Assembly (NCBI RefSeq): GCF_964204645.1
Contig: NC_134036.1
Coordinates: 11,015,859 to 11,079,858 of the forward strand
Source of the DNA: Tubulanus polymorphus
Taxonomy: Eukaryota > Animalia > Nemertea
DNA: 64,000 nt
Direction of reading: 5' to 3'
Shown: positions 11,369 to 43,437 of the stretch, piece after piece
Layout: every line of letters starts with the position of its first letter
How positions within the stretch are numbered: position 1 is the stretch's first letter
Position numbers and translations under genes: made by a program
Notes under the pieces: model-generated
Databases searched by the model: none
The model's input: only the letters and a program-made list of their open reading frames with translations
Told to the model about the DNA's origin: nothing

Positions 11369-11386
11369 TTTTTTTTCACTATATAA

Positions 11387-11950: not shown

Positions 11951-11974
11951 ATGCGTAATTATTTTACTAAATAA

Positions 11975-12397: not shown

Positions 12398-12418
12398 TAA
12401 TTTTTTTTTGCAAAATAA

Positions 12419-12845: not shown

Positions 12846-12861
12846 TTTTTTAATTATATAA

Positions 12862-14145: not shown

Positions 14146-14160
14146 TTTTTTATTATATAA

Positions 14161-15592
14161 ATGGATGAAGAAATTCCATTGGATCCTTTAGATGAACCTG
14201 GTATAAGTGATGAACCACAACCTGATTTTAATGAAACTAATATTGATAATGATGATGAATCAGCATATACTTCTAATTCTAATTTAGCAGATAGTGGTTC
14301 TAAAGCCCCATCAACACAAGAAAATGATAGAAGAACTAGATCGAGAATAGATCCTGAAAATGAAAATCCAGATTTATGAAAGAAAAATTTAGAATATAAT
14401 GAATTTATGTATAAATTCATACCTGTATTTAAAGATTCTGTATATAATATAAATGCTAGAGGCGCCAGACTTTTAGTACAAGATTTAAAATATTTAGATG
14501 GTGAATATTATTATCATTTGAAAGATGATTATTATATTGATATCTCTTATAAAAAACAAGAAAAAATATTAAAAGAATCAACTTTGGGAAAAGAACCAGA
14601 TAGAATTAAAAGAATAAGTAATAGTAATGTAATAACTGATCTTACCGACACAGAAATAAATCAAAATAGAAGAGTATCTAAACAAAGAATTAATGACTTA
14701 TTTGAAACAATCGATGATAATTCAGAAAAAGAAACAACTTCTGAACAGAATAAAACTTCCAAAACTAGTAATCTTAAATCAAACACTGAAGTTCAAACTG
14801 AAAAACTTTTACCGAATGGATTACTTGATGCAACAGATCAAGAAATAGAAGCTTTAAGTATGTTTTCTAAAAAAACAATTAGAGAAATAATAAGTATACG
14901 AAATGAAGCCGATAAAATTGCGCGCGAAAAAAATATTAGATATAATAAAATTAAACCTTTAGAAAATAAATTATTCGACACCAGAAAAGAATTAGAACAA
15001 TTAAAATTAGATAGAGAATTTAAAGTTATTGAAGAAATTGAATTTAAAAAAAGAAATGCATATTTAGAAAAAGAAATTGATGATTTAGAATATAACATAG
15101 ATTTCAGAAAGAAAAAATGAAATTATTATTAAAATCATATGATTATTGTATTAATAGATTAAAAGTTGTTGTTAAAGAGTTAATAATAAAACCAAATTCT
15201 GACATATCACTAAAAGATAGAATAAAATTATTATTTAAGTTTGAAGGAATACCAATTCTTTCAATTCTAACAGCTGTAACTATGTTATTTACAACAATTG
15301 GTTTAGCAATATCAAATTCTACTCCTACTCCCAATAAACCGGATAAACCCCCAGATAGTAATTCTATACAAGATAAAGTTAAGGATGGTTTAAAAAAATA
15401 GCAAAATATTTATGGGAACTATCTAAAAAATCTGCTGCAGCATTACCAGGAATTATTGCATCAATTGTTGGTTTTATATTCAAATCTGCCGGGAATATTC
15501 TTAACTTTGCTGCTGAACATATTATTTTATTTTTAATTACAGTTGTAAGTGCAATTATTTTTGGGTTAGTTAACATGATAAAAAATAAATAA
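14161..15592 (+). pseudogene. Acidic N-terminus / coiled-coil / multi-TM protein (fragmented)
   Basis: ORFs 14161, 14407, 15117 plus continuation KSAAALPGIIASIVGFIF to stop at 15592. Confidence 0.7.
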
Positions 15593-15611
15593 TTATGTTT
15601 TTGTTAAATAA

Positions 15612-16858
15612 ATGAGTGGGAGTTATATCAATCCTTCTAAGAATCATAGAATATCTAATGCTATTAAAGCAGAAAGATCACATCATATAATTACTCATAA
15701 CCTTTCTAATATTAATCCTGATGAAACTTTATATGTTAGAATTCCTCGATTAACACAAAATACTTTTTATGTTCCAAATAGTATTTATTTATCAGCCGAT
15801 ATAAAAGTAATCGGTAATAACAATAATTATGTTGTTGATAATGTTGGGAGATATTTGATTAAAAAATTAACTATAAAGATTTGCCCAGAAACAGCTTTCT
15901 CATTAGATGATTATAATCTATTTATGCATTATAAAAATTTATGGTTAACTAAAGAAAATAGAAATAATATGATATTTCAAGGCATCCAATCAGAAAACCA
16001 AAATAAATTAAGATCAGGAGCTAATGACGCAATAGTGACTCGTACCGCAGATAATTTGATAAAAAAGATTTATGGAAGCAAATATAAAATTCCATTAGAC
16101 TTTGAATTGATAAATAATAATGCGCCTTTATATAAATATGCAATTCAAGAAGATGTTATATTAGAAATAACATTTGCTCCTGTAAATGAAATTGTTTTAT
16201 CTAGCGTTATTAAAGATTTGGGTTATAAATTATCGAATATATGTTTAGAATATGATACAGTAACTGATGAACATATTTCAAGTATAATTCAAACTAAATA
16301 CAATCAAGGATTTTCATTATTATATGATTATATTGATAAATTTAAAACTGTAACTATTAATGCAAATGATGAAATAATTTATGAGAATATTAACTTCCCA
16401 AGAAGATCTATTAAAGGTATATTAATATTTTTTACCATTGCAACATATTCTAATGGTGCAATACAGGTTGATAAGTATTAAAATCCTGAAATAACAAAAG
16501 TAGAAATAACTATCGAAGGAATAGCAAATAAAATATTTTGTCAAGGAATGAGAATGATAGATCAATGGCCAGAAATTAGAAAACATTTTATGAATGAAAA
16601 AGTGAAATCATCTGAAAATTGTAATATTAATCGAATTGATTATTATACCGGTAATAAATATGCATTATGGTTAGATTTTAGAACAACAGAGGATAATTCA
16701 TTACATGGTTCTGGAAAAAAATTACAAAACACTAAAGATGGAATACAATTATTCATGACAAAGAAAAAAGGAAGCCTAAATTTCAAAATGCATATTTATA
16801 TTATATCTGACGCGCAATTAAATATTGTAAATTCTCAATTAAATAGTGTTATGTATAA
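15612..16858 (+). pseudogene. Major capsid protein (double jelly-roll) of element A
   Basis: ETLYVRIPRL, VDNVGR, YG.KY.IPLDF, LSNICLEYD, RRSIKGIL, ALWLDFR, HGSG, ISDAQLNI; single in-frame TAA at 16479-16481. Confidence 0.88.
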
Positions 16859-16891
16859 GAATTTTAACTTTAATAAAAATTTATATAATAA

Positions 16892-17815
16892 ATGGAAGGA
16901 GGTTAAGTATATAAACATATTCCATATATCGATACACATGCAAATAATGATGGTTTATATTATGTAATACCTTGTAATATAGCTTTGATATTTGATCCTA
17001 TTTTCAAAATTTATAAAACTAAACTAATAGAAATCGATAATAATAAAAGTGAAGTTGTTGATAATTTAAGTAATGTAATTGATAATAATGCAATACCTTC
17101 TACATCTAATAATGTAATACCTTCTATATCTAATGATGTAATACCTTCTACATCTAATAATGTAATACCTTCTACATCTAATAATGTAATACCTTCTACA
17201 TCTAATAATGTAATACCTTCTACATCTAATAATGTAATACCTTCTACATCTAATAATGAAATAATATTAAATATTAGTGAAAATAGAAATTATTGTGATT
17301 ATTGTTAAGGTTAATTTTCAAACGCTCCATCAAATTGGAATAAACATATGAATACAAGGGTACATATTACTAATGTTATAGAACGTGTTGGTTTAAGAGA
17401 AGTTATAGAACACCCATTTAGACATGGTACAAAATTTGTTTCAAATAAAAAAGTAAATGGTAAAGAATTATATGAAGATTTATTATTAGCAACACCTAAT
17501 AAAGATGAATTAGATTTAACCGATGCTAATAAAATATTAGGATCAAACATTGTAAAAGAAATATTAGGAGCAAACACTAAGAAAGATGATAATGAAATTA
17601 TAGTTACAGATAAGCATATTGATAATAAAGATTCTATGAAACATAAAGTAGAAAATAATGATAAATTTGAATGGATGAATAAGCATAACAATGAAACAAC
17701 TACTGATGATGCGGTAAAAAGGATGAAGAATAAGTATAAAAATAAAACAACTATTGATGTAGATTCGGTAGAGCATTTGAATAAATTGTTAGGGTATGAT
17801 AATGAAAGTGATTAA
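16892..17815 (+). pseudogene. Repeat-containing C2H2 zinc-finger protein (three in-frame stops)
   Basis: TAAATG at 16892 is in frame with ORFs 16985 and 17348; YCDYC...WNKHMNTRVH finger. Confidence 0.6.
17084..17257 (+). repeat. 24-bp coding minisatellite x7 (NNVIPSTS)
   Basis: AATAATGTAATACCTTCTACATCT repeated in tandem. Confidence 0.95.
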
Positions 17816-17847
17816 AATATTAATTATATTTAACTCAAATAATAATA

Positions 17848-18240
17848 TTGGTTGAAAATTGTATAAAATAATAGTTAATAAAAAAGGGGGTTTTAAGTAT
17901 TTAAGGTATCTAATAGGGTATCTAATACATATCTAATACATATCTAATACATATTATTTGAAAATACCTTAAATTATATTTCTTTTTTAAATTTATATTG
18001 AAACCTTAGTAATAATAAATAACCTTTATTATTTTAAAACTTATTCATATATTAGTTGAAAAAATAAAAATAAATTGGTTGAAAATTGTATAAATAATAT
18101 TTATTTTAAAAAAGGGGGTTTTAAGTATTTAAGGTATCTAATAGGGTATCAGGTATTAGGGTATCTAATAGGGTATCAGGTATTAGGGTATCTAATAGGG
18201 TATCAGGTATTAGGGTATCTAATAGGGTATCTAATACACA
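17848..18240. repeat. Central non-coding repeat region between the convergent arms
   Basis: ~75-bp direct repeat (17849 and 18076), 11-bp TATCTAATACA x3, 27-bp GTATCTAATAGGGTATCAGGTATTAGG x3.5. Confidence 0.9.
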
Positions 18241-18253
18241 GATATATAAATAG

Positions 18254-18865
18254 TTATTTTATAAATTTATATTCATATGGAAATTGTAGTCTCATTAATA
18301 ATTTTGAACCTTTATTATTCTTTAATTTATTCATATATTCATCATGTAATTCAGTAGGTATAATTTGATTTTCTTCCAATGATTGTTGCATAGATTTTCT
18401 ATCTTTGTTATAAAATAAAACTAGAAATCTTATATTCTCCCTAATGTCTTTAACAATTGAATTATATTTTTGATTTAAAACCCATGTTGTTATCCCAAAA
18501 TGTCTCCCAGAGAAAGCTAAATAACATAACTCACTTTCTCTAACGTTTGAATCATGTAAATTTGCGCAATCATCTATAATGAATAATGTATTTGATCGTT
18601 TGTAAGTATCAATTGCTATTTTAATACAATTATCTAAATTTTCTTTTACTGTTTTAGGATTTAATATAATAAACTTTTTTATCTTAACTATATCTCTATT
18701 ATATGTTTTATTCATTTCATAAGTAGGACAAAATAATATTATGTTATCAAAATGATTCTTATAAATAGTTTCTAACAAATCTAATATGAAATGTGTTTTA
18801 CCACAATTGGTTACTCCAGTAACTAACATATTATGCGGTATAAATATAGATAAATCTTTATTCAT
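18254..18865 (-). CDS. A32/FtsK-HerA genome packaging ATPase of element A
   Basis: Walker A GVTNCGKT, Walker B LFIIDD, SGRH arginine finger, VLNQ. Confidence 0.92.
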   Translation of the reverse strand: MNKDLSIFIPHNMLVTGVTNCGKTHFILDLLETIYKNHFDNIILFCPTYEMNKTYNRDIVKIKKFIILNPKTVKENLDNCIKIAIDTYKRSNTLFIIDDCANLHDSNVRESELCYLAFSGRHFGITTWVLNQKYNSIVKDIRENIRFLVLFYNKDRKSMQQSLEENQIIPTELHDEYMNKLKNNKGSKLLMRLQFPYEYKFIK

Positions 18866-19979
18866 TTATTCTTTTAATTTTACTAGATAAAATCCATTCA
18901 TTAAATTTATCATCATATCCTTTATATTTCACCAAAGAATACTTTTTTCCTTTAAGAGTTTTTGTTTTCAATACTTTTTCTATTTTATATTCTATTTCAT
19001 CTGGATTTGGTACAAGTGATAATTCTTGTTCATAGAAATAACCTAATATTTCTTCATCTTTTAGATCTTCTAACTTATAAACAAATGGTTTAGTTAATAT
19101 TATCTTTTTAATCTTGAATATTTCTTCTGTAAAATTAGGGGTATAACCTTTATAAAATGTTTTTCTATATTTAGATATGCTAACGTGTTGTCCTATCTTA
19201 AATTTAGGTTCTCCAAAATCATGTGTAACAAATGCTCCATATAAATTATTCCAAACTATTTCTGAATTATCTTCTTTTCTAGCTTGTATAGGTTTCATAT
19301 TTATAGAACTATGTTTAGAATTATTATAACCTTTCACTAAATCATCTAACACATCGATATATTTGTATGTTTCATTAGCAGTATTTCCATATATATCCAC
19401 ATTAATATTTCCACATTCTAGTTTTCAATGTTTTATTAAACCTTTCTATAATAGATGCTTTTTTATCTGAATATGTTGAAAAATAATCTACATCGTTATC
19501 GGATAATAGTTTTTTGACATGTTTGTTATAAAATTCTTTACCTTCATCAAATTGTATCTTATCTGGAATAGCTTCTTTAAATATTGATTTAAAAGCATTT
19601 GTCACTTCTATACCAGTTTTATTTTTGATTGGAATTGACCATGCGTATCGACTGAATATGTCTATAACATTTAATATCCAGAAATATCCTTTGTTGTATT
19701 CCTCTAAGTTCTGTCAATTAAATCTGCTTGCCATTGTTGATCGATATATGAAACCATAACTTTTCTTGTTAAATAAGTTTTATCCATTTTCTTGTGTATT
19801 TGATATGTTGGTTGATTTTGTAACCATGATTTCAATTCACTTTATTTCATATTACCATTTTCTTTATCAGATTTAATTTTATTCCATAATTCTGTAACGT
19901 TAGAATATGATACTTTACTTCCTGGGTTGTAATATAACTCTCTTAAATATTGTTCTTTTTTCATCTTATTTTAATCCAT
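18858..19979 (-). pseudogene. Retroviral-type (rve) integrase with C-terminal chromodomain
   Basis: LYYNP, WQADL, IDIFSRYAW, IQFDEGKEF, IERFNKTLK, GYTPNFTEE, Y.IEKVL..LVKYKGY..NEWI. Confidence 0.92.
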
Positions 19980-20346
19980 TAATAATAATTTAGATTTAGT
20001 TTCAATGGCTTTATGATTCGACTTATTTTCTGGTATGATAGGTTTATCATCGTTGGAATCATCTTTATCATCAAATTTGAATTTTGATTTATACAGTATA
20101 TAGTACACCGGATAATATAATAACTGTTACTAATCCAATTGTAATATATAATTTATAATTACTTCCAGCATTAGAAGAATCAGATGGATTATTATTTGAA
20201 TCAATATCAGATAATTTCTGTGGTTCATTTATATCAGTTAATTTCTTTTTCTTAGCTTTTTTAATTCAGCAGATCTTTTACCTAATTCTCTTGACCATTT
20301 AATTTGTTTCTCGGATCTAGGCTTCTTCTTTAACGCCATCACTCAT
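19980..20346 (-). pseudogene. Basic N-terminal, single-TM hypothetical protein (fragmented)
   Basis: TAAATG start at 20346; lysine-rich segment followed by a hydrophobic stretch; fills the gap between neighbours. Confidence 0.45.
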
Positions 20347-20941
20347 TTATTTTAGTTAATTTTTGTTCTGATTCATTTTCTGTTTCACCGTTTGGTTGTA
20401 GTTCATCTGTTTCGTTCTTACCTGATTTATATTCCATAGGCTTGATATTCGAAAATGTTATGACGCCAGTAGAAATTAATGTCATAACCGATCCTAATTG
20501 AAATGAAGCATAACCAACCCATTTTTGTAATTCAGTCATAACTAAATAGTCATTTTTCAAATCACTATATAATTTATTTTCATCATCAATTGGTATTAAC
20601 TGGTTACATAACTTAGAATAACATTTGACAATACCATTTGAAATAGAATCATTTATTTGGGCTAATCTTGCCTATTCATAAATCTTAAAATATTTTATTA
20701 CTTTATCAGGTTTCATAGCATCTAATTCTTGAAAAGTTATTATTTTTCCCAAGAAATCTTTAGATTTTCCTCCAGCAATCAATAGTTCTAGATGATGCTT
20801 ACAATATAAATAGTATTCATAATCTATATTACAATTAACTTGAGCACAATTAGTTACAACTGTATCTTTATTATCAATTATACCCAAATCATCTAATGTT
20901 TTTTCAATATTAATACTATTCTTATTAGATTTCTTTGACAT
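20339..20941 (-). pseudogene. Conserved hypothetical protein (one in-frame stop)
   Basis: ORFs 20941-20672 and 20560-20339 are in the same frame; GKSKDFLGK...Y..YE motif. Confidence 0.65.
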
Positions 20942-21148
20942 TTATATTAGAGAAAAGAAGAAAAAAAAAATATTATAAGTCTTCTTCAAATGATACTAGC
21001 TACTTAAAGCTAAAGAATTTCTATTCGGATCTATTCAAAATATAAAGTATTCTCTTTTTGAAAAGAAAATATTAAAAATATAATAGAATTCACTGGTTAG
21101 TTGAAGTTATATAATTGTTAATATTTTTTATTTGAGATATATTATTCT

Positions 21149-21825
21149 TTAACCACTCATTAAAGACTCAACGTATTGTTCATTATTTGGATCATTGTTC
21201 CATTGATCAATAAATTTCTTTGCCTTTGTTAACTGTTCTAAATATAACTGTAAATCTATTTTATTAGATTTGATTTTATATTCTTTCTTTTCAAGAGGTC
21301 TTAAATTTTTCAAACCCCAAATAAGTTTTTTATTGTATTCATCATTCATGTTAAATTTAGATATTGGTAACGTATGATCAATATGAAAATAATCTCCATA
21401 ATTATCTATATTCATTTGACTATCGAATTGAAATATAATCCACGATTTGAGAAATTCATCTGAACAACCCAACAAATTAGATAATGTTTCTGAATGTGTT
21501 TCTTTGTTGAATAATTGTGTTAATCTAGATCTTAAGCATTGTTTCAATCTAAAATTAAGATCTGTTTGATATCTTTCTCTCATATATTCTGCCATATAAT
21601 AATTATAATGTTCTATATTATCTTCTCGATATTGTTTGGTATATAGTTTAGTGCAAGTTTTACAGCAATATTGAAAACCATCTTTGCTAATCTTACGCTT
21701 ACTAAATTCTTTAAATGGTTTACACTATGGTTTACTAATTCACACTTAGAACACTTCTTGTAATATATATTTATAACACCAGTGTTATTTGTAATATTGA
21801 TAATTTGTGGTTGTTCTGGTTCCAT
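21149..21825 (-). pseudogene. HNH endonuclease with N-terminal zinc ribbon, of the type common in large DNA viruses
   Basis: KKCSKC N-terminus; D.NFRL...LRSRL, LLGCS, HIDH, NLRPL; frameshifted. Confidence 0.82.
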
Positions 21826-21989
21826 TTATTATATGTATTTTTTTACTAATTTGGTTAATATTTTAGAATCCTCTTCCATTTCTTCGACCAACGTCATCCT
21901 TTTTCATTCCTCGCTGCTTTTGATAAGTCGTTTCAGTTCCTTGATATCTAAATCATACCAGTTACAATACCCGCGTCACATGCGGGCAT

Positions 21990-22300
21990 ACAGGAGCGCT
22001 TTTGCTTAATGTGCATGTGTTGATCATAATTATATATTCATTCTGTAAATAGAAACAACTGAAAACATAAAATATCAAAACGCACTAGGCAAGACCGGGC
22101 ATTCAGGCCCGGTTTGGATCAATGCGCATGCGCTAATCATAATTATATATTCATTCTGTAAATTCTGTAAAATAGAAACAACTGAACACAGAAAATTCAA
22201 ACGTATGCGCACTAGGCAAGACCGGGCATTCGGGCCTGGTTTGGATCAATGCGCATGCGCTAACTATAATTGAAACGACTGAACATAAAAATTCACCAAA
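21990..22300. repeat. Tandem array of ~2.5 copies of a ~120-bp unit
   Basis: GCACTAGGCAAGACCGGGCATTC..GGTTTGGATCAATGCGCATGCGCTAA at 22082 and 22209, partial copy from 22008. Confidence 0.85.
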
Positions 22301-22439
22301 CAGATTTACACAATTCATTATACAAGTTGTTCAGTCGTTTCTTCCAATACATCATTTGATTTCTATAAATACAATTTATAATTACAAACATTTTTTCAAT
22401 TGCCGGTAAATATTTAACTACATCAACAAACGTTAAACT

Positions 22440-22630
22440 TAATCATTGGAGTCTTAATGTTTTTGAAATTCTTATATAGTTTCTTCTTCGATCTTTTGTG
22501 ATTCTTGTGTTTCTTGTGCCAATTTATATTGGTTCGATATCCATTGCTGTTGATTCCACAGTCATAAAGGAATGCTCAATATCTTGAGTTTCTCTATCGC
22601 TTCTTGATGTGTATGACGTTTTATTAATCT
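22440..22630 (-). pseudogene. Possible diverged homologue of the 11975-12397 protein
   Basis: KRH..QEAIEKL then W.Q..WI.NQ in broken frames; weak. Confidence 0.25.
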
Positions 22631-23129
22631 AAAAGATATCAGCGGTAACTCTAATTATCTAAAAGATATACTAAATACACTTAAAAATATATCTAAAGGT
22701 TTCATATTTAATAGCCCCAATAACTACAAAAAACAGTACTTACATTTAGATTTAGAATTGTAAACTATAAACTCCGATTTTGCGTTTCGAGAGAGAATAT
22801 CCTAAGCGTTATGTTACATCGTCTATTCAGTTCCGGTGCGATTTTGAAATGAACACGTCGTCGATTATGCCACGTCATCTAGTTCCGGTACACCTTCTAG
22901 AATGATCTTTTGTAGAATGATCGCGTTTGTAGTATTATGACTCATATGTCTCGGCGTCATAGTAACAGCTGTGACAGCTGTGAATCAATAGATTTATTCA
23001 ATTATTTTGTAATACCAGCTGTTACACGAGGATTCGCGCAATATGATTAAACGTTTCTATTAACTGAGAAAATCAATAACAAAGGCAACGTATCTTTATA
23101 TAGAAATCAAATTATGTACAACGCCCGAA

Positions 23130-23426
23130 CATACTTGTAAATATATTATCTTTATCAAAATAATCTTCACCTATATTTCGAGTATGAATTTTAGATTTTA
23201 AATGTTCATTTTAATATCTTTTATCACTGAATGATTGATTACATGTATCACATTTGTATGTTTCTTTTTCATTCTTTAATTCATCTAATTTAGTTTCTAA
23301 TATATCATCTTTATATTTTAACTTTAATTTATTCTCTAAATGTGTTTTAGTTTTATTGTGTCTTGATTTTTGGGATTTATCTGTATTGATATTACATGTT
23401 GGGCAGTAGTACTTATTTGCTTCCAT
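23130..23426 (-). pseudogene. N-terminal zinc-finger region of the first element-A gene (likely polB N-terminus)
   Basis: YYCPTC..KSRHNKTKTH and YKCDTC..H fingers directly inside the terminal sequence; same composition as element A. Confidence 0.6.
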
Positions 23427-23505
23427 TTTAATACTAAATTTTTTGCTAAAATTGATTTTAGAAGTTCTTCATTTATATTTTATTCATGTATATGAATATT
23501 TTAAG

Positions 23506-23662
23506 AGTAATAGGGGTTCAGTTGTTCTAGGTTAAAGGTTGAACGGGCGGGTGAGTAAAAAATGAAAAATATGAAAATAATAATAATTTCTACTTGAATG
23601 AGGAGTGAAACTCATAAAAAATGAAAAATAAATTCGAGCGTGCGAGAATTTATTTTTTTTTT
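23506..23662. repeat. Element-A terminal sequence (partial hairpin)
   Basis: AGTAATAGGG..TTGTTCTAG.TTAAAGGTTG..GTGAGTAAAAAATGAAAAAT..GTGCGAGAATT matches 34295-34380. Confidence 0.8.
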
Positions 23663-24166: not shown

Positions 24167-24625
24167 AGTAGTAGGGTATGTCACTATGGGGCCACAGTGG
24201 AGGGAGGAGGGAGGAGTGAGGAGGGAGGAGGAATGACGTCATACCGGAAGTGACGTCATACCGGAAGTGACGTAATCCAAGATGGCGACCGGAAGTGACG
24301 TCATCCAAGATGGCGGCCGGAAGTTGCGGTTAAAATTCAAATTTCAAATTTTTGGCGGGAAAATTCAAAATTTTTCCGTTAAATCCAAATCAAATTATTG
24401 ACAACAAATCCAAATCAATTTATTGGCGGTGTTAAATCCAAATCAAATTTATTGGCGGTGTTCAATCCAAATTTATTTATTGGTATGATTGAATCCTAGA
24501 TGGCGCTTACGCATTCCTATGCGTGTTTATGGGAAAAGTTGAATCCTAGATGGCGCTATTACGAGATCCTATGTGTACGTGGAGGTGAGGGGGGAAGTGA
24601 AGTTAAATCCTAGATGGCGCTTTTC
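24167..24625 (+). promoter_or_regulatory. Left terminal region of element B with clustered ETS, CRE/ATF, YY1 and CTCF-like motifs
   Basis: CCGGAAGT x4, TGACGTCA x3, CAAGATGGCG x2, AATCCTAGATGGCGCT x3, AAATCCAAATCAA repeats. Confidence 0.75.
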
Positions 24626-24816
24626 CCTGAGTACGGGCAAATTCGAGACAAAGAAAACCAAAAATTAAAAAACTAACGTTTTGATCATTCTTTCGTTTTA
24701 TTAAGAATGAATAACAAATACACAATAAATACACAATAAATAGAATAAATAAGATAAAATACACAATAAATAGAATAAATAAATAAATAATCATATACAC
24801 TGCGTTATTTCCTATA

Positions 24817-27800
24817 TCAATATCCGAACGGAAGCGTGTTATACCGATCTGCGGGGTCGAAAGCTCGTTTAGTATAAACCGCGCGATATATTTTTCGTTC
24901 GTCTCTATTGTAAATAGAACAGTCCTTGATCTTTCTATTAATTTTGTCGGGGTTTGATATGTAAAGATGGTCGTACTTTTCTTCGACAATTATATCTACC
25001 ATGGAACCAAAGTTTACAATTTGTTTGTTTCGAAAATTCAAATTGATCCCTTTAACTTTACATTCAGTCGAAAATGTATTATCTCTAGGACTAAATACCC
25101 GATATGCATAATTTTTTGGTCCAGCCGAAACAAATTCTGAAATAAACGACCCCTCCCCGTATTTATCAACCAATTCATCGGTCATATCACCCAAAAAATT
25201 CCCGGTCGGCGGATCCCATTCACCAGGTTTCACGCTATAAATAATGGAGTCGGTATCCGTGTATAGGGTTCGTTCCCCTAATTTCTCCATATAACTATAG
25301 AGAATAAGCCGCGCATGAGCCGTTGTGAAAGCTGCTAAGGCGACACTGGTTTTGTTTGTCGATTCGACAAATTCTTCGCGTTTTTTTGTAATGCACTCTT
25401 AGCACCTCGTCATTACACAACAACAAATCGCTTATCTCTAAGGTTTGATCTAAAAGCATTCTATATAATTCCCCGGGGTCCGAAATATATTTGGCCGTCG
25501 TTTTATTTTCATTCTGGCCGAGTTTACCCCACATCGAATTCAAACATAATTTCGCGACAGTTCGCATCCCCTTGGCTTTTTTAATTTTATCTTCTTCGAG
25601 TTGGATACCCTCCCTTTCTAAATAATCGGAAATGAATTTATCCTTTTGTTCGCGAGACATATCTTTAGCCGGCCAGCCACTAGCTTCAGTTTTAACTTTG
25701 AGGAATTTCCCTATGTAATCCTCGAATAAACCCGTTTCATTAGTCTCCCAATTCCAAATTTCATATATATCTAATATCTTATAACCAAGTTTCACTGCTT
25801 TTTGTACCTCTAAAGTTACCCAGGTACCGGTTATCGAACGTTCGTCAGCCGAGTGATGACACTTTTCGCGCTGATTGCTTTCATTAGCGCACGTTCGACA
25901 CAATGGGAAAGTCAATTTCCCATACGATCTATACGGGAGTACGGGTAGATATAAACCCCGAGGTGGTAAAACCTTACACTTGATCAACCCGTAATAATTT
26001 TCGATATCGCCGAAGTTTTCAGTCACAATACTCGGATGACCGATCGGATAACTACAACGACTGTTGACGTACGGGTATAACGAACATATGTCGATGTATT
26101 TGATTTTTTCTTCACCCTCGGCTTTGCGATAAATTTTTATCGCGTTCGTACGACCTCCGAAAAATGCGTCACGTGGTTGCAATGGATCGAGAAAATCAGA
26201 TTTCTTGACAAAATCTGCAAACGCGTGGTTTTCTTTAACCAAGTCACGATATTCGTGTTCCCAAAATTCTACCAAATTGTAACCCAAAGCTCTAATTTTA
26301 GATGTTTTTTTCTAATGTGGCCTGATATAATTCACCAATTTTACGATCGGGTCGTACCGGAGATATCAAATCCGGATTTTTGAAACACTTAGGGCATCCG
26401 TGATTTAAACAACCGTGAAATTCATACACGGTATTGGATTCGGCGTGATAACCGTCTACTTTAAAGTGGGCAATCGATACTTCGCCGCCGTTCAACGCGT
26501 GTTGGACTCTAATGTCGTTCGTTGTGGATACCCATTTCAAGCAGTTAATTGCCATATTGGAAAATTTTGCATTAGGCTTATAGCCACCCGGAGGGATTAG
26601 CCCTATTGTTGTTGGTTTCAAAAAGTTTGTTCGTAACGCCACATTGCACGCCGATGCTATAGTGATGCTATTACGAAATGGATCAACAGCCGAAAGAGCA
26701 AAGAATTGATGTTGAAAATTTACGACCGATTGTATTAGAATATCCACATCCGAACGACAGTATTCGACCAACTCGCGCTGCATGTCAAAAATGAAATTTT
26801 CAGACTGCCGATCGCTATGCCACTTTATTAAATCAGACCGCTCGCTCGAACTAAGACCGTCGGGATTGTAATATTCTATATCGGGAATAGGTCCGACGTA
26901 ATCAATATTCTCGCGAGTGCAGAATTTATACGGAAAATACCCTTTTTTTCAATTCTGGAATACCTAGTGTTTCAGGTAATTTACCAAGTTTCATTGGTAG
27001 AAAATTCAGTGTGTCCAAAAACTTTATGTCCAAACTTTTAACGGTCATAGTCATTATTTTCCCACCGTTTGGTACAATATCTGGTAATATACCTTGTGAA
27101 ACAAAATATTGCAGAATAAAGTAACCGTCAAAGGATTGAAAATTATGCGCAAAAACAATGGCGCCCCTATTCTCTTCCGTAAACAACCACTCGCAGAATT
27201 CAGAGTCCGTTTTAAACACGTGTTCGTGTTTACCGCAATAATCGCAAACCGAGTCGGGGTCCGTTTCGACCATTCACACATTTGACATATTCTATGCGCT
27301 ATACCCAAGACGACAACGTGGTTCGATTCCACAGTCGTTGTTTCGAAATCGAATGCGATGAACTTTCTATATTTCAGCTCATCGCCAGCCTTGTCCGCAT
27401 CCAAATACGGGTTAATTAGTGTATGAGGGGTGCCCTGTTCCTCAGAAACTATGTGATCCTGACTTTTGGCAACCCCGATGTAGCAAAGATGATCGCTCGG
27501 TTTTCGCTCTTTACATGAACTGCAGTATTTATGACCGCAGTCGTGAGATTTGAGATCAAGCTTCTTTCTAGGTACAATAGACCCGCATTGTAAACATCTC
27601 GCCTTTGAATCGCATAAGCTTGACCCATCCATTCTCGGTCTGCAGTGTCTGGCTAAACACGCCTCCGATTTAAAATAAATGTTGCATTTTTTGCATAAAT
27701 GGTCTCCTCTTTGTTGTCCGCAATTGCCTAAACAAAGTCTGCATTTATCCGTACAGCTATGTCTCTCAGCATTCGCATACCCCTTTTTACAAAAATAGCA

Positions 27801-29872
27801 AAAATACGGACGACATGTAAATGCAGACATCGAGGTAATTACGTCAAAATGACCATCCGTATATAAAAGTTCAATTTTTTTACACCCCGCCCCTTTGATT
27901 TTTAACACAACGTTATTCGCCTCGTAAATTATCTGATACGCGATATCATTACCGGTTGCGACTATTATAAAGTAATCCGATAATTGTTTCGCAAACGCAT
28001 CCAATTCGCGTAGTCCACACATGCCTTGGGGCACACCAGCATTCGTGTGTAAGGCAATTGCCGCATCCTTCTGCGTCGGACGATCGCATTGACGAATAAC
28101 GTTATAACGCGGATCATTATCCGCACGCGCCTTCGCCACCACTAATGACCTAGCGAGACACAAATCATCGTCATTATCGATCGAGACAATACAGCGTTTG
28201 TTTTGTCTAAACGACTCGAAATTTACCTCGACTCGTTTTCGACGGACACCACCTAGCGGCATTCGGATGAATGTACAATGGAAAATTAATCCATCCAAAG
28301 ACAAATCCTCATTCGACTGTAGAACACGGATTGTTCTATCGAGTATATATTCTACCGTTAGTTCGTCCAACGGTACGAATGGAAATTCAATGTTTCCATT
28401 GAGATCCGCGTGCTCGATAGATATCCGGATCCTGTCATTCGAACGAGCGTCCAACATTTCACTAATAGCCGCTAAAACGTCAGTTAGATAGTTCCGGACA
28501 GTGGTTTGTGTGTCCTGCGCTTCGAGTTGGCCGTTATTCTGGTCGTCATGTGGTATCACGGTAACCTTGTACAGCTCAGTTTTCGTATTGAACCTTTTAC
28601 TGTGCTGTACACGGTTCTGTAAAATAATTGAAACATTCTTTTTATTCATTCGAAATAGCTCGTCATTATATATGTTATACGATTTTGCTGCATTCAAATA
28701 CTTACCCTGACCAGTTTAATATTACCCCGTATTATTTCGTCGGGGTTTTCAAAGTGAGGGCGCTTCGAACACGGTACTTCTTCCTCATCATCAATATCGT
28801 CGATAGGACGCTTCGATGTTGAGGGCTGTGGCGCGCATACCTCGCTGTGATTTCTTAACTCGGCGATTGATGGGAACGAATTCGAGCATCGCGAGCACGT
28901 AAACGACCGTATGGTGGATGGTGGCGGTGGTGGCGGTCGTGGTAAGGTCGATGACTTGTTAGGTCGACACGTCATCATATGCCGTACCAAGCTATCTTTA
29001 CGAGATAGCGTTTTACCGCATATGTCACAATAATGCTAGAAAAAAAGGAAAGAAAAAATACCCTGATTATATTAAAGATGAATAACAATATTAGCAATTC
29101 ATGAGTTCAATTACTTACAGAGTTAGATGTCCCAGGGTGAACGGGGTGACAATCAGGTAGTGGCTGAGGGTTTACACACGGTAGAGGGTTTACACGTGGT
29201 TGTTCGACGAATTTTTGACACGTTTTGGCGTGTCGACGCATGTTGTCCACGCGTCCAAACACCTTACCGCACTTGATGCACTCAGACCCCTTCAATAGAC
29301 AATGACATTGAATGTATATTAAAAAATGATATATAGCGGTTTTTCTTTCGTAACTCATAATTTAAAACTTACCGGTTTAGTCTCCGATGTGACAGGTTGT
29401 GCGGGCGGTGATGAGGGTTTGGCAGCTTATCCTTTACACGTTTTAACATGCCTCTTCATATTATCTTTGCGGGTAAAAGACTTGCCGCATGTGTCACATT
29501 GCCAGCTATCAGTAGTTCCAAAGTGGGAAATCAAATGGTGTGCCAGTGTTTGCTGGTTAGCACAATTTAGACCGCATATTTTGCAGTCCCATATTTGCTG
29601 AAAATATAAAATAGGTATTTAATAATACGTTCAACCGCGTAGTAATTAAATGAGCGGTTCAAATCTACTTACCGGAAGCTACAGGCCCCATGCTGTTGCG
29701 CCGGTGGGGATGCCATACAGATGACGGTGTGGTGCGTCAAATCGCGCGCACACGCAAATGCTTTGCAACAGCTCAAGCACTTGAACCCCTTCTTACCAAC
29801 GTGAAGTTGTTGGTGTTGTTCCAAGACGATTTCATTGACAAAAGTAGCTGGGCAGTATTGACAGGAATACAT
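24817..29872 (-). pseudogene. polB: Spliced protein-primed DNA polymerase B of element B with N-terminal zinc-finger exons
   Basis: Exons 29872-29673, 29597-29373, 29289-29119, 29035-28706 and 28616 onward. Motifs CLARSLVV, FDFET, AHNFQSFDG, YCRSDV, PRDAFFGGRT, YIDICSLYP, KLCLNSMWGK, YTDTDS, GPKNYAY, KVKGI; several frameshifts. Confidence 0.93.
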
Positions 29873-29932
29873 TTTTCTGTAAGAAAAAGAAAAACAAAAA
29901 TGAGTATGTGTTATTTTTAAAAGAGACTAATC

Positions 29933-30256: not shown

Positions 30257-30561
30257 AAAAAGGCGACTAGTGTTTTATGAAAAACAATCAAACCGTGAAT
30301 ATGTAAAATCGGAAAATAGTCAAACCGTATTTTTAACTAATGTTATTTTGTCAAAACCGTATAGTATTTTCCTATTAAAAAAGTTCAAACCTCATTTCTT
30401 CAAAATTGAAAATTTTTAAAACCTCGTTTAGTAAAAATAAAGAATCTAGTAAACCATAAAACGCTTGAACTGTTTTTTCTAAAATATTAGCAACCTCCGG
30501 TTTCTATTAAAAGTGTTTTTTTTCGTTCGCTACTAAAACACATAAACACCAAAACACTAAG

Positions 30562-31190
30562 ATGGCAGAGTATGATGGTCCTAGATATTTATCTCACCCA
30601 TTCACGATGATAGTCGCGGGACCGACGGGGTCTGGCAAAAGCGTGTTTGTAAAAAAGGTTATAACGGAGAATCTTGTCGAAAAGAATCCTGATAAGATAT
30701 ATTGGTGTTACGCGGAGGCGCAACCCGAAATGTTCAACGAATTGGAAAAGTTTGGAGTGCGATTTGTAGAAGGTTTTTCCGGAGAACTCTACGATAAAAT
30801 AGATGGCAGCAAACGTGTATTAATTATAGTCGACGATTTGATGAATGAAGTAGTTTGTATACACGAGGATCCCATCATCGCAACATCAGCGTTATTACGA
30901 TTGTACAAAATATTTTCCCGAAAGGCAAAGAGTTTAGAACGATTAGTTTAAACTCGCATTATATTGTCGTTTTTAAAAATGCGCGAGATAGAAATCAAGT
31001 TCGCGTTCTCGCTTAACAAGCCGGTTTGAAAAGCGAAATTGAATCGGCCTTTAGAGACGCAACCAAGGAACCCCACGGTTATCTTTTACTGGATTTTAAA
31101 CCGAAAACTGATGAAAGATGGCGTTTGAGAACTAGAATTTTTCCTAGCGATAAATACCATATAATATACAAAACAAAGAAAATTCATTAA
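30562..31190 (+). pseudogene. Packaging ATPase of element B
   Basis: HPFTMIVAGPTGSGKS, IIVDDLM, then shifted frame TRGSHHRNIS, RTISLNSHY, PHGYLLLD, RLRTRIFP. Confidence 0.92.
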
Positions 31191-32280: not shown

Positions 32281-32574
32281 CTACTAGAAAACCTAATAGC
32301 GACTGTCAAAAAGCTTTGACCAATTACGAGGCTTCATTTTTGTTTGGGGGGGGGGGAGTGTCAGAGGTTAGAAAACCATAGTTTGATGTTGATACTATTA
32401 GTTAATTGACAAGTTGATATGATATACGAGAGTTAATTGGCTGTGCGGGTTTCATATGTGACCGAGTTACTAATAGTTAATTGGATGTACGGGTTTCATT
32501 GTTGGGTCAAGTTAATTCGATATTAATTGTGAATCGGCTATGTGGGTCTCATTTGTGGTCGAGTAAGCACGTTA

Positions 32575-33101
32575 ATGATGATTGAGGTTGTAAACGTTGT
32601 ATCCACTGCGCATTTGAATTGCCGTTTAAATTTAACCGATATTGCAAGAAAATTATGTAATGTCGTTTATGACCCCCGAAAGTTTAGCGGATTGATGTGG
32701 AAACATAGACGTATAAAAGGTAGCTGTCTATTGTTCGTTAATGGAAAAATGGTAGTGACAGGATGTAAAAGCGAGTTTAACAGCCGATGCAGTACACGGA
32801 AATTTGCTCGTTTGATACAAAGGATGGGTTACGTAGGGAACTTGAATAACTTGAAAATACAAACTATGACTGGAGTCGCAAAAATCGGTCGACGCGTAGA
32901 CTTAGTGCAACTTTCCAAAACAGTTGACGGTTGATTATAATCCTGAAATATTTCCCGGTTTTGTGTACAAATGTGAAAACGGAATAAAATGTATAGTACA
33001 TAACGGCGATACTTTAATATTGTCGGGTGCCAAAAAACTCAACGATTTTACAGGAAGCCTACGAAGAAGTTCTATTCTATACCATTCTTTGTTCCAAATA
33101 A
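32575..33101 (+). pseudogene. TBP: Intronless TATA-binding-protein homologue carried by element B
   Basis: NVVST, L.L..IA, YDPRKFSGL, LLFVNGKMVVTG.KS, RKFARLIQRMG, then YNPEIFPG.VY and LSGAK: the two TBP core repeats; two frameshifts. Confidence 0.88.
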
Positions 33102-33276
33102 AAAAGTCATTAAAAGCATATTGTTTTTTAAGTGTAAATAAAATTATGAGAAAAGATGAATTGGCGAAAGTTATTTTGTTGGTGTTGTTTGAAGCAGGAG
33201 GAGCCGAATTTCGAGTGTCAATTCAATAGAGTTAATTGAGTATTGAGCACGTGTTGCGGTAGTACAACTGTAATTG

Positions 33277-33997
33277 ATGAAAGCCGAACAGAAAAGATTC
33301 CTGGCGAATCAATATTATGGCGTCGACAAAGAAGGAAGTTTTTCAAACGCAAATACATTACTACGGATTTGTAAAAAAGAAAACAAAAATATCTCTTAAC
33401 GTGAGATACGAGACTGGTTAGCCGAACAAGAAGTTCATACGTTACACGCCAAAGTACGAAAGAGATTTCCCAGAAACAAAACTATGGCCTATCGAGTAAA
33501 CGAACAATTTCAGGTTGACTTGTGCGACGTTTCGAATATTTCGAAACACAACGACGGTTACAAATTTCTATTGACGGCTATTGATGTATTGTCTAGATAC
33601 GCGTTCGCTATACCGTTAGAGAATAAATTTAATTCTACCGTTGTGGATAGTTTTAAAAAGATTTTCAAGATTTGGAAACCTAGCGTTATTCAATCGGATT
33701 CAGGCACAGAATTTGTCGGTTCAAAAACGCAGGCGTATCTGAAAAACGAGGGCGTACGTTTTTTCCAAAGTAAAAACGAAGTAAAATGCGCTTTAATCGA
33801 AAGATGGATACGTACTTTAAAATCGAAAATGTATAAGATATTTTCGCATAGAAATTCATACAGATATATTGATTTGCTTAAAGATATAGTAGCGTCATAC
33901 AATAAATCGTTTCATCGTAGTATAAAAATGGCTCCAAACGATGTCAACGAGTTAAACGCGTACAAAGTTTTCAAGAATCTATACGGTACAATCCGTA
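33277..33997 (+). pseudogene. rve integrase of element B, 3' truncated
   Basis: YY....GSF, WL..Q..HTLH, FQVDLCD, IDVLSRYAF, QSDSGTEF, IERWIRTLK, YNKSFHRSIKMAP. Confidence 0.92.
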
Positions 33998-34445
33998 GTA
34001 AATATGTTCTGAATTTATATGTATTTCCTTTTAATCCTTCATATTCTGAGTGGATAACTAATTTATCTCCATAGTTATTAGTAACTGTATCAATATTTGT
34101 AATTAAATATTTCTTATGAATTGTTAATTCCGTTAACTTTTTGAATTTATAATCTGCAGATTTTACATTTGTGATATCTTTAATTCTATCTAAAAATGAT
34201 TTGTTGTTCTCACTGTGTACTTGTTCACTCTCCATTTTTATAACATATTTTTTATTAAAATTGATTTTAGAAGTTATTAGATTAATTTTGTAAGAGTAAT
34301 AGGGAATATGTTGGTCTAGATTAAAGGTTGAGAGGTTGAGTGAGTAGAAAATGAAAAATAAATTGTGCGAGAATTAATTTTTCATTTTTTACTCACTCGA
34401 CCTTTCGACCTTTGATCTAGAACAACATATTCCCTATTACTGTTA
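33998..34445 (-). mobile_element. Element-A family fragment: terminal hairpin joined to the SSB-like gene
   Basis: 34235-33998 encodes a close paralog of 10246-10490; hairpin at 34295-34441. Confidence 0.88.
34295..34441. repeat. 147-bp imperfect palindrome (70-bp arms, 7-nt loop)
   Basis: AGTAATAGGGAATATGTT...AACATATTCCCTATTACT with 7 mismatches. Confidence 0.95.
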
Positions 34446-35140
34446 TGATTTAATTAAAGTAGTTAATTTCACTTTGTTCTGTTCTAGGCAAAGAAACACA
34501 GTGTGAACAGAATGTCTAAGGCGGCAAACTAAATACGCATGTCGCACTACCGGAAAGGGTTGAATTACATTTTGAAAAGATCAACCGCCGCAGTAGCAGC
34601 ATTAACTAAAATAATCCCAAAACTTATTAGAAATGAATTGGAAGTATGATGTCATCATATAGTGAAAGCATAGGCTCGCTAATAAAAAATATCAATATCA
34701 TCAATTCAATTAACATCTGCAGTTGCTCAATTAACACATTTATTAATCTATTTATGTCCATGGAATTTTTTTCACTTTTCAGAAATTGTTACCAGTAATA
34801 TTACCAGGGATGATAGAAGAAAGGAAATTGAAAATGCACACCTGCCATCACTAAATGATCAGTGAGTATTATATCAGTTTACATTCATTTAAGTATATCT
34901 CCCTATCATTAAAAAATCTAATACCTACAAATTTACGTATGAAAAAAGGGGTTCGCACGAAGCCACTTAACGACTTCTATTTAGTTTAATCTTAATTGAA
35001 CATGACTAAACCACTTTAGTGCCAGGTTCCATTACGCATCTATGTGAAGTTACTTTGAACTTTGATATCGAGAAGTCTATCAAATTAATTCTTACAGTGA
35101 AATCAATGATAGCGCAGATGTTGATGCCGATGAAGCTGTT

Positions 35141-38599: not shown

Positions 38600-40577
38600 A
38601 TGATGAATACGACTACTTGACAAAGTATTTTAGAAATATGTAGTACGACGAAGTCATCTACTCAATCTAGAAAAAGAAAACGCCCGACGCACAAACTCGC
38701 CTTCAGTAAGTTTCTACGCAGTCGCGGGCCCGTTGAAAGTTCAACGGAATACCTGGAACTATGACCCCGAGCCTCATTATCTAGGATCGCTTGTATATGC
38801 CAGTGCTAAAACGTGGCAGGGGGTAAAACGTATAGATTTACGAACTTTCGAATGCTGCGAACGACGAAAACAACTATACCCTACTAAAAACGGTATTGCT
38901 TTGGATCTCCAAGAGTGGGTACATATAGATTATTGTAAAGCCGATATCGAACACGAAATTGCGCGCGTTAAAGAAGATATCGATTACGTGGGTGTGGTGA
39001 CCGTTGGTCGTTCGAACTTTATCAAAATATATAGATCTAGTCACGATCACCGTATTTACGTAGATATCCGAAAATACGATCAACACGATGAGCTTTTCGA
39101 CGTAAATCCGACTAGATGCGGCGTTAAACTAACATTGGAAAAATGAAAAAAATTAAAAGACATTAATTTTACAGAAGATATATCCGAACTGGCTAATATG
39201 AGACCGTGCTGGTATGATTCGAGGCTGTTCGAATATCACGGATACCGGATACCGGACACCTAAATACCGGATACCGGATACCCGAGATTGCGGAGTATAT
39301 AGCGCATCGGGTCTAATGGTCAGCGGTAAACGGCAGTTCGTGTGAGATCTAGTAGAAGAATAAAAGGCCTATATTATTTTCATAATACATCGGTATATGC
39401 TTTTCAAGTACAGTAGCATACAAATGTTACCGGTATAGACAATTCAAACAGATTTATTGCTTCCGAGTAATAACACGATTACATACGACAGTCACGGTAA
39501 CAAACAGTAGACAGAAAATATTTTTTATCATTCTGCCAATTTGAACGGATTACCGAATAGACCGTTTTGGGCAGAGCTACTGTACAATACAAAATATCTT
39601 TATCATTCAGTTTCACGAAGAAGGCCATTTTAATAAAGTTAAGCGTTATTGACGATCTATATTTTCATGATCTTTAGAATTAAATTTAACATCAGGGTAA
39701 ATAGTCACTTAGAGGTATGGTAGGTACCGGTATTTGACGAACTGATTTTTGAAGGTTATACCAAAACAATTGGTGTCCAGGGGTGTTGATTTTCGACGAT
39801 CGCCATGGACTCAATTTCATTTTTAGGGACATCGTGATTGAGAATGAAATGTAGACATATCGTCCAATAAATAGAATATACCGAATATTCTCCTCCATAA
39901 AATAAGAAAACGAATTTTAATTCTTTGTTTGTAAATACTTGTATTTCATTGGTGTTCAGCTCAACTATTCCATCGTAAATCAACAAATACAAAATGTAGA
40001 GATCTTTAAAACAAACTTTATTAGACGAAACTTTAGACTCGCTTATGGCCTTCAAACTTGAGATATAGGGCCTAGCAGTACTCAGCCCTATTAATGAAAG
40101 GATTTTACAGAAAAACCAAAAAGGGCCACCAATACATATCCATCACCAGTGAAGTAAGATAATAAAAAATGAATATAACGTTTAACTTCACCTAACCAAA
40201 GAAAAACAGTATTCAGAAAAAAATATGTATAATATTGAGATCGATGATGACACTTAAAACGTGAGAGAAGGCTGTAATCAGGCTAGCATTAAGACAAATA
40301 AGCTGGTTAGCCGCTGTAACAATTTGACATAAATGAATTGTATGTCGCGGCAGTACTACTTACAACAACACGGAAACGAATCCTTAGACCCGATGCGCTA
40401 TATATTCCGCAATCTCGAGTATCCGGTATTTAGGTGTCCGGTATCCGGTATCCGTGATATTCGAACAGCCATGATTCGAGTCACTCGAATCAGGAATACA
40501 GGTGTCCGCACTGCGCAAAAGACACAAGCGGGGTTAGAAAAGCACTCGAATACGGAATAATGATAACCCAAGTATAA
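38600..40577 (+). pseudogene. Tandem PC4 (SUB1-like) domain protein with C-terminal Zn motif, split by a MITE
   Basis: IDLR.F...PTKNGIAL...EW and VDIRKY...PTRCGVKL; removing 39223-40479 restores PCWYDSSHSNQEYRCPHC. Confidence 0.8.
39223..40470. mobile_element. Non-autonomous Mutator-like (MULE) element
   Basis: ~90-bp TIRs starting GGCTGTTCGAATATCACGG; perfect 9-bp TSD ATGATTCGA at 39214-39222 and 40471-40479. Confidence 0.9.
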
Positions 40578-41737: not shown

Positions 41738-43028
41738 CTATATATGACGTTCTTTAGTTACTTGTAGTAATTCGTCGAAAACGGCGTAAACAATCGAATT
41801 CACGTTATGCGGTGAAGCTTCATCATATCGCATTTCGATTTTTAACGACCCCTTTTTAATTAGTGACAGGTGCGGTTGATCCCCGTACTCGGGCAACATG
41901 TTGAACCCACAAATGAAATTGCCTTTTTTGAAATCCTCACGTTTTATCCCAATTCCTTCGATTTTATACAATAAACCCCGGGCTATATATAAACCGTGAT
42001 ACACTTCACTACCATCACCGCGAGAGTCTATAATTAACGGCGAGTTTAGTGCATGGATATTATCAACGGTCACCCCCTATATAATTCAACGAATAATCCT
42101 TGAAATCCAACGGATTCTTTTTGTAATTACCGCTCAACGCGTCGTCGTCCACTAAAGCTAAAACAATAGCCTTAGGTATCTCTCCGACGAAAACGGAATC
42201 CTTGATAATTGTTCTCAGACCTCCTTGAATTTTTAACGATAATAATTCAGTTCTCGAAAAATAATATTTTGCTGTACTCTTTTCCAGTGCTTTAACGTGC
42301 GCTACTAAAACAGAACTATCCAGTTCTAGTTTACGAATGTATAGTTAAGCGCTTTCAATCTTTATACGAAAATCTGGGTTTTCGGCAGGGGAAATTAGAG
42401 CAAAACATTCCTTTGATCGAGTTAGTTTTATTTGTAAATCTGTATTGTTGATGAAAATCTTATTCATTCTCATTACGTCGCTGTACAAACGAGTATAAGC
42501 GCAAACCAGTTTACTGCCTTTAGTGTAGTTATTCCTTCTGACCAAACCGGAATTTGCGTTTGGTAAAGTAGGATCGATATTTGACTTTTTTCCGGCTTCG
42601 TCTTCGGCATAAAGATCGCATTGTAGCCAGCTGCTATTTTTAGTATACGAGTTGTAATTAACCATATTTTCCAGCTCACATTTGAACGGGTATAACCCCC
42701 CGTCGTGGGTAACCACTCGGTCGTTAAGCGTAATTTGCATATCGCTAAATAGACTATTGGCGCCATTGATCATTGAGACTGGCTTTTCAGGACCCACATT
42801 AGTTCAATCGGCGTTAACTATTTTGAGCTGTAGTTCTAAATACGTGACGTTTAAATCTAAATATTGTTCAGTTCTGAATACAATCGGTCCCATATCGTTA
42901 ATCGACGTAGTGGGTTCATAGCTGACGTATCGGCATTCTTTGAAATCTATCTGTGTTCCGGGAACTGTAAACAGATCGAGTTCGGACTTGACGGACAATG
43001 GCGAATCCTTGCGTACTAATAATGACAT
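41738..43028 (-). pseudogene. Major capsid protein (PY) of element B
   Basis: KSELDLFTVP.TQ, SLFS....LND, YPFK, H.KALEK..AKY, KNP..F, G.LKIE, VYA.FD. Confidence 0.9.
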
Positions 43029-43029
43029 A

Positions 43030-43400
43030 ATTAGTACGCTTCAGCGGATGCTTTGGTTTGTCGTACGCGTTTTCTGGTTGTTATACGTCAACTTCGTTTA
43101 CGACCTTTTATTGATTTTGGGGTTGAGGTAGATGGTCTCTTTAAACTTCGTCTGATAATGCGACCCATTGTTTCGATGCCACGATCTTTGATGGCTGTCG
43201 CGATATACTTACCGCCTACCACATCGCTGGCTACGTGTAAACCCGTTCTCAGTAAAGAGGAACCGCTTGCTTGGCGATATCTTTAGTAGTGGAATAACTG
43301 GACGAGCCAACCCGCCCAAGACTGATGCAAATCAAGCACCGCCTTGTACGGGGAATGCCGTGTATAGGTCAATACCCGAACCGCTTTGGTTCATGTAATA
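43030..43400 (-). pseudogene. Gly-rich/basic core protein upstream of the MCP
   Basis: SGSG, Q.G...SVLGGLAR..IPLL, G...ASDV..G, basic C-terminus. Confidence 0.55.
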
Positions 43401-43437
43401 TTTACCACAAGCATCCCGATCGATTTCGCAGAGAGCC

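Follow-up and report, generated by a model that had tools for sequence, protein, structure and literature searches.

Zinc-finger exons at the terminal-protein end of a Polinton/Maverick polymerase gene in Tubulanus polymorphus

Gene content of the element and its surroundings

The window analysed here, a 64-kb stretch of Tubulanus polymorphus DNA (NC_134036.1, positions 11,015,859-11,079,858), contains a decayed Polinton/Maverick, hereafter the window copy, to which the finger-bearing gene described below belongs. Its gene for a protein-primed family B DNA polymerase (polB) comprises a terminal-protein (TP) domain at 28257-28616 (minus strand; approximately residues 1-120 of the polB exon), for which an AlphaFold model predicted a little-finger-like fold, a vOTU-like protease domain at 27813-28229 (minus strand), assigned from structural alignment and motif positions with Cys153 and His256, and a Cys-rich segment with the exonuclease and polymerase domains of pPolB at 24817-27812 (minus strand; PF03175, E 2e-27 to 1e-7, with three polB pieces above the Pfam cut-off). 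The AlphaFold model of 27330-28616 had a mean pLDDT of 71.6. Using VIA-align, model residues 12-125 (TP) were matched to the Y-family little finger of Pol kappa with a middling Z of 7.0 (rmsd 3.5, 102 aligned), and model residues 139-269 (vOTU) to OTUD2 with a Z of 10.1 (rmsd 2.8, 105 aligned). Foldseek returned no match at E 0.001 or better, with a value of 2e-3 for TP. Cys153 was invariant in 21 sequences, and the model points to an OTU domain with a putative catalytic Cys and His. The TP-vOTU order, the TP fold assignment and a proposed cleavage between TP and vOTU have been described by Krupovic et al (PMC11071308).

The window copy is dead: exon 1 of the finger region is out of phase, exon 2 contains a stop, and polB is broken by four frameshifts near 27255, 26944, 26305 and 25390 into five pieces that are collinear with full-length relatives. 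Reads from a DNA run revealed a multi-copy family of diverged copies. These other copies differed from the window copy at two of the polB break sites, so that those two breaks are probably copy-specific. The putative left end, recognised by its end motif (24167-24330, plus strand), reads AGTAGT, a GGAG-rich tract and then short repeats; the short repeats near this end (24230-24630) resemble what we take to be ETS, CRE and YY1 sites. No right repeat matching the 24167 end was present in the 64-kb window. The (AGT)2 motif is a Maverick end motif (PMC8097293).

The neighbouring genes are the same as those of a diverged relative, locus L002, which is 45% identical to the window copy in TP-vOTU. 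A frameshifted packaging ATPase, divergent from polB, lies at 30553-31175 (plus strand; IVa2, E 2e-5, above the cut-off; 55-73% against the L002 ATPase). It is followed by a TBP-like gene in two pieces at 32533-33229 (plus strand; Pfam E 6e-24), which also occurs in L002 at 3468-4091 (Pfam E 5e-36), and by a retroviral-type integrase at 33259-33987 (plus strand; rve, E 5e-10), shortened by an inserted piece of an AT-rich element. A PC4-like ORF was noted at 38634-39146, and with its TBP-like and PC4-like ORFs this lineage may bring its own transcription factors. The major-capsid-like gene at 42075-43037 (minus strand) was 56% identical to an L002 ORF. Its Atlas features matched double-jelly-roll clusters at 0.98, with a recognition score of 2272 (below 2300) and a Pfam share of 17-37%; a single-sequence fold of the L002 capsid homolog gave a pLDDT of 28, too low to use. 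The capsid block as a whole (42075-43460) is inverted relative to the L002 gene order, and could stem from a rearrangement or from a second copy. In a Pfam search of 26 window ORFs, none matched an adenovirus-like maturation protease.

Other mobile elements were seen in the same window. A second, AT-rich Polinton (GC 0.22-0.26) at approximately 7500-23600 carries a different polB type, an integrase-chromo gene, an A32 ATPase and capsid-like ORFs, all broken. Within it, an inverted pair of 411 nt (84%) occupies 9643-10053 and 21168-21578, each member lying in an ORF that by eye resembles a piece of an HNH nuclease, with no Pfam match. Pieces of the AT-rich element are found inside the finger-bearing element at 33998-34446 and 43604-43784, one of which truncates the integrase. 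Finally, a LINE retrotransposon at 50194-54752 (minus strand) contains a zinc knuckle, an endonuclease and a reverse transcriptase (RT), with a stop inside the RT region.

Finger exons and introns ahead of the terminal-protein exon

Ahead of the TP exon, four finger exons alternate with four short introns on the minus strand. A candidate splice acceptor (29877-29891; pyrimidine tract and CAG) lies 4 nt before the ATG at 29872 that opens exon 1 (29673-29876), which holds finger 1 (C2H2) and finger 2 (C2HC). Intron 1 (29598-29672; 75 nt, GT-AG) separates it from exon 2 (29373-29597; 225 nt, phase 0-0) with fingers 3 (C2H2) and 4 (C2HC). Then come intron 2 (29290-29372; 83 nt, phase 0), exon 3 (29119-29289; 171 nt, phase 0-0) with finger 5 (C2HC), a paralog of finger 4, and intron 3 (29036-29118; 83 nt, phase 0). 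Exon 4 (28706-29035; 330 nt) carries fingers 6 and 7 (both C2HC) and a Pro-rich and acidic/basic linker, and is followed by intron 4 (28617-28705; 89 nt, phase 0), located at the same codon position as a 336-nt intron of L002. In the window copy, the 200 coding nt of exon 1 end in phase 2, out of phase with exon 2, and exon 2 contains one in-frame TAA at 29427-29429. A preliminary description of this DNA, made from the sequence alone, had placed the four introns (75-89 nt) at these positions with GTAAGT...AG ends, and had reported seven C2H2/C2HC fingers, an acceptor 4 nt ahead of the ATG, the phase mismatch of intron 1 and the single TAA. All were confirmed, the fingers being two C2H2 and five C2HC.

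All four introns begin with GTAAGT and end in AG. Their GC content was 0.24-0.29 as against 0.45-0.52 in the exons, pyrimidines made up 8-12 of the last 12 bases before each of the four acceptors, and a branch-like motif was present in three of the four. The occurrence of four GTAAGT donors in 1,257 nt was reached in 0 of 3000 simulations with matched dinucleotide make-up (mean 0.26). The hallmarks of U2-type introns, i.e. GT-AG ends, a pyrimidine tract and a frame-keeping phase, were thus found, the phase of intron 1 in the window copy being the exception. Since exons 2, 3 and 4 (225, 171 and 330 nt) are multiples of three with their fingers in frame 0, introns 2-4 are phase 0, as had been proposed. 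The boundaries of the accompanying 547-aa polB ORF did not hold, however: this ORF begins within intron 4 and departs from the polB frame near 27255, and counted from the acceptor it has 520 codons, about 450 of them polB.

If intron 4 is retained, the finger frame meets stops in both the window copy and L002, while the TP frame of the window copy is open through the intron and has an ATG there. Among the final codons of the pre-TP intron, both elements have an in-frame ATG (within window intron 4, 28617-28705, and at L002 6977). This ATG, close to the intron's 3′ end, could initiate a finger-less polB, but may also be a chance occurrence. Contigs from three sequencing runs, whose type is not recorded, and the raw reads of one DNA run yielded eight joints, none of which coincided with an intron, and the contigs of those runs read straight across the introns; no run being known to be RNA, both results are uninformative on splicing. 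Two joints fell in the finger region, one in three reads that go back 369 nt and the other a 268-nt skip in two contigs with a short side. They could indicate that the fingers are arranged differently in other copies, or may reflect cross-alignment of paralogous fingers.

Each of the four exons gave Pfam matches to C2H2 families; the curated cut-off was exceeded in exons 2 and 4 only. At the base-contact positions -1, 2, 3 and 6, three of the seven fingers read R-D-N-R or R-D-S-R, and the R-D-N-R type of helix is absent from fingers 1, 2, 3 and 7. The finger consensus with its base-contact residues is that of DNA-binding C2H2 arrays. Fingers 4 and 5 share 14 of 21 residues; among fingers 4, 5 and 6, the shared residues range from 10 to 14 of 21, and between these fingers and finger 2 of L002 from 11 to 14 of 21. 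The idea of a modular array put forward in the preliminary description was borne out by these paralogous fingers and by the finger numbers of relatives, which together with the window copy span 1 to 7.

Two comparisons link the finger exons to polB. L002 has an acceptor 3 nt before its ATG, a 384-nt two-finger exon that resembles window exon 1 at its start and window exon 4 at its end, and then the 336-nt phase-0 GT-AG intron. Similarity to the window DNA is about 65% in alignable genes, and intron 4 does not align. In a quick tree (58 rows, long branches) the two were sister rows (SH-aLRT 99). Among named proteins, those of Tubulanus polymorphus came closest (80% over 57% of the query). One of these, P0166 (RefSeq XP_074661123.1, Tubulanus polymorphus), a computed gene model compared as protein only, combines three fingers with TP in one protein. 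Exon 1 corresponds to its residues 2-49 (46% identical), exon 4 aligns to residues 33-151 (E 4e-15), ending at 151, and the TP exon runs from 152. As residue 4 of the TP exon falls at 155, the junction is gap-free. The tail of exon 4 consists of the residues that immediately precede the TP exon in relatives, and all 39 of 39 aligned relatives were continuous across the finger/TP junction. Basic KR clusters precede TP in the window copy, L002 and P0166. A second RefSeq model (P0001), 80% identical and derived from another copy, changes frame as it runs through the finger exons, and it was left out of the support for the splice model.

The expectation that the introns would be conserved across elements thus held in part: intron 4 and the 5′ acceptor recur in the diverged L002, whereas introns 1-3 were found in no other element examined. 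Taken together, the intron and acceptor of L002, the collinearity with P0166 and the single-ORF fusions in relatives (below) support an assignment of the finger exons to the polB gene, on its terminal-protein end. Splicing of the fingers onto TP is likely, judging from the DNA and the gene models.

Fingers among relatives

In polB proteins of the bivalves Mya, Ruditapes, Mercenaria and Mytilus, three fingers are fused ahead of TP-vOTU-polB in one ORF. The earlier proposal of a finger-polymerase built by splicing is partly supported: finger exons do lie on the TP end of polB, but the fusion does not need splicing, as these relatives demonstrate. The same applies to the claim that ORF-based annotation would miss the array. 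ORF surveys clip the 5′ end of polB, yet for some genomes NCBI annotation does include the fused gene, labelled for instance 'ZN358-like' or 'uncharacterized'.

One to three fingers preceded TP-vOTU in 59 of 82 protein matches, which is not a frequency, as the query contained fingers; two finger proteins without polB were excluded. With a finger-free query, fingers preceded TP in 11 of 147 representatives, or 11 of the 49 whose pre-TP stretch has 60 residues or more. They were absent in 136 of 147, 98 of which are too short before TP to tell. As many relatives are without fingers, the finger arm appears dispensable. At the DNA level, 12 of 85 loci had fingers that share the frame of TP, many loci having little upstream DNA. 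Among 57 close relatives, 42 kept three intact fingers. The commonest pattern in finger 2 of these three-finger relatives was R-D-N-R (13/42), and R at -1 and N at +3 were conserved in at least 30 of the 42 second fingers. In the quick tree, finger-bearing rows occupied at least four separate branches, interspersed with rows without visible fingers, and the window copy and L002 were apart from the bivalve three-finger group. Several finger-less relatives (P0014, P0056, P0007 and kin) have long acidic, repeat-expanded leaders in place of fingers. Four loci (L082-L085) place a Polinton-type polB in bacterial MAG records, probably through host contamination, and scans of the viral_contigs database gave at most one matching locus.

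A candidate 5′ acceptor, defined as a pyrimidine tract (8 of 12 pyrimidines) and YAG at most 25 nt from the first-finger ATG, was found in eight of nine scorable finger loci. Eleven loci were given, of which one had no ATG under the rule and one was too short; the loci are related and hence not independent. Among the controls, such an acceptor was present at 1 of 10 other ORF starts, at 121 of 1338 ATGs and at 998 of 3400 positions nearby. When applied to the TP junction, the acceptor rule scored the window copy, missed the L002 junction and flagged two off-junction sites. The TP junction was non-coding only in the window copy and L002, among 36 resolved of 86 loci. A different in-frame intron (194 nt, phase 2) was seen between fingers in another locus, L012.

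Possible roles of the finger arm

Our preferred reading, with a probability of roughly 0.6, is that four finger exons would be spliced onto TP to give a finger-TP-vOTU-exonuclease-polymerase polyprotein, in which the fingers would serve as a DNA-binding arm, keeping the primer protein attached to DNA. Visible in the DNA are the fingers with their splice signals and phases, the order of the domains and the decay. It is strongly suggested that in intact copies the host would splice the finger exons to the TP exon, for a product of roughly 1,570 residues. The array may well have started as an ancestral leader of two to three fingers, carrying a 5′ intron as well as intron 4, and the family of the window copy would have reached seven by copying modules bounded by phase-0 introns; this probable course is in line with finger counts of two in L002, three in P0166 and seven in the window copy, whose added exons are flanked by phase-0 introns. 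No clear signal of similarity was obtained between the introns of the window copy (z -0.9 to 2.2), so the module duplication is either old or not the cause of array growth. According to the model of Krupovic et al, the vOTU domain cuts behind TP. Given that the fingers precede TP, we infer that they would stay with TP, on the protein linked to the 5′ ends of the genome.

What the fingers would do there is the least certain step. Tentatively, and at somewhat less than even odds, we favour that they recognise a sequence close to the end of their own element and assist in loading the primer, as a stand-in for host factors: at the adenovirus origin, NFI and Oct-1 help loading. We take the R-D-N-R helix to read GAG by the recognition code, and the first 150 nt of the window copy's end contain 9 GAG, with a window mean of 1.3. 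The putative ends of four finger-bearing relatives, chosen by the AGTAGT motif alone, had 1-4 GAG and those of five finger-less relatives 0-4, with no shared GAG-rich motif, so that a shared terminal target is unsupported. A GAG-rich terminal repeat as the common target of the fingers was rejected, the count being high only at the end of the window copy. This is compatible with the same spliced fusion serving another end, namely the tethering of the TP-capped genome to host chromatin for nuclear retention or the steering of integration. Here the basic KR clusters ahead of TP would fit, and the phi29 TP's N-terminal domain binds host DNA and puts TP at the nucleoid (PMC4357725). The conservation of R at -1 and N at +3 in the second fingers, however, suggests one defined target, and we regard tethering as possible but less probable than origin loading.

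Three further explanations concern the arrangement itself. Splicing could be a regulatory switch, in which transcripts that keep intron 4 or skip an exon would give rise to a free finger protein or to shorter arrays, with the divergent polB/ATPase promoter under their control; the finger-frame stops in retained intron 4 of both elements and the symmetric 0-0 phases of exons 2 and 3 would permit this, but with a TP-junction intron in only 2 of 36 resolved loci such a switch is not needed for the fusion, and we consider it improbable. Slightly more so is the notion that the fingers and introns 1-3 are nearly neutral additions made during life as a genomic parasite. It accommodates the lack of fingers in many relatives, their variable number and the decay of the window copy, but sits poorly with fingers on at least four branches and with the retention of three intact ones in most close relatives. 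The finger exons might also constitute a separate host-derived zinc-finger gene or decayed cargo, upstream of a polB that starts inside intron 4. The open TP frame and ATG of intron 4 allow such a start, and Mavericks do carry intron-bearing cargo (10.1101/2022.07.12.499685). Against this, the end of exon 4 aligns without a gap to the pre-TP residues of P0166 and the single-ORF relatives, and donor and acceptor positions are conserved in L002, which makes a separate gene very unlikely.

Compared with the preferred reading of a spliced finger-TP polyprotein, known systems agree in parts. The pPolB of Alpha adintoviruses, with the order TP-vOTU-EXO-PALM (PMC11071308; PMC8502044), likewise has PF03175, a TP fold and an OTU fold with Cys and His, and the surrounding putative (AGT)2 end, integrase, packaging ATPase and capsid-like gene are also those of Alpha adintoviruses and Polintons; unlike it, the polB of the window copy contains GT-AG introns, and a C2H2/C2HC array precedes TP. 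Vertebrate and nematode Mavericks share the core gene set and end motif. Intact vertebrate Mavericks are described as being without introns (Barreat and Katzourakis, PMC8097293), and those of nematodes have intronless core genes and introns in the cargo only (Widen et al, 10.1101/2022.07.12.499685), in contrast to polB of the window copy. The bivalve proteins resemble it in having fingers ahead of TP-vOTU-polB, in helix type and, in related loci, in an acceptor just before the ATG; they differ by having three fingers and an intron-free coding leader, are about 33-35% identical and belong to a separate branch. Adenovirus, too, has nuclear protein-primed replication and a spliced start of pTP, but its pTP is a separate protein and the virus is without an integrase; we know of no finger array on pTP. 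The start of pTP comes from a tiny spliced exon, and the terminal repeat has NFI and Oct-1 sites (PMC2397415). Introners provide intron-type sequence inside polinton-like elements of dinoflagellates, where they are mobile, repeated and mostly gained after integration (PMC11957031), whereas the introns of the window copy are mutually unlike and one position was inherited across 45% protein identity. Introns reported in PMC12220804 are of group I.

The literature surveyed mentions neither a finger array on a Maverick TP nor GT-AG introns in polB. Word searches in Starrett, Krupovic, Jeong and one 2026 preprint found neither a finger array nor a spliced polB (zinc, C2H2 and intron 0 times each in the text of Krupovic, PMC11071308; finger and splic 0 times in Starrett, PMC8502044). 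Literature searches, judged by their listings, gave none on this feature, although the founding Maverick papers of 2006/2007, Repbase or supplements may already mention it.

The significance is tempered by the window copy being dead and by the fusion being unspliced elsewhere. Nuclear transcription, which the preliminary description had derived from the introns, is unsurprising, and the implication was overstated in that it is presumably expected of any integrating element. For annotation, polB genes of this kind would lose their 5′ end in ORF-based surveys, and genome annotations file some of them as ordinary zinc-finger genes. The inherited position of intron 4 would mean that an active lineage long passed through host splicing. 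As a long shot, Mavericks of marine invertebrates might carry a programmable zinc-finger address label on TP, remodelled by exon duplication, tuned by host splicing and covalently placed on the genome ends, that decides where replication starts or integration occurs, with intron retention releasing a free finger protein as a latency switch. More broadly, fingers on TP in several invertebrate branches would add a likely sequence-reading part to protein-primed replication, and the array may offer a handle on how these elements find their origins and choose their insertion sites.
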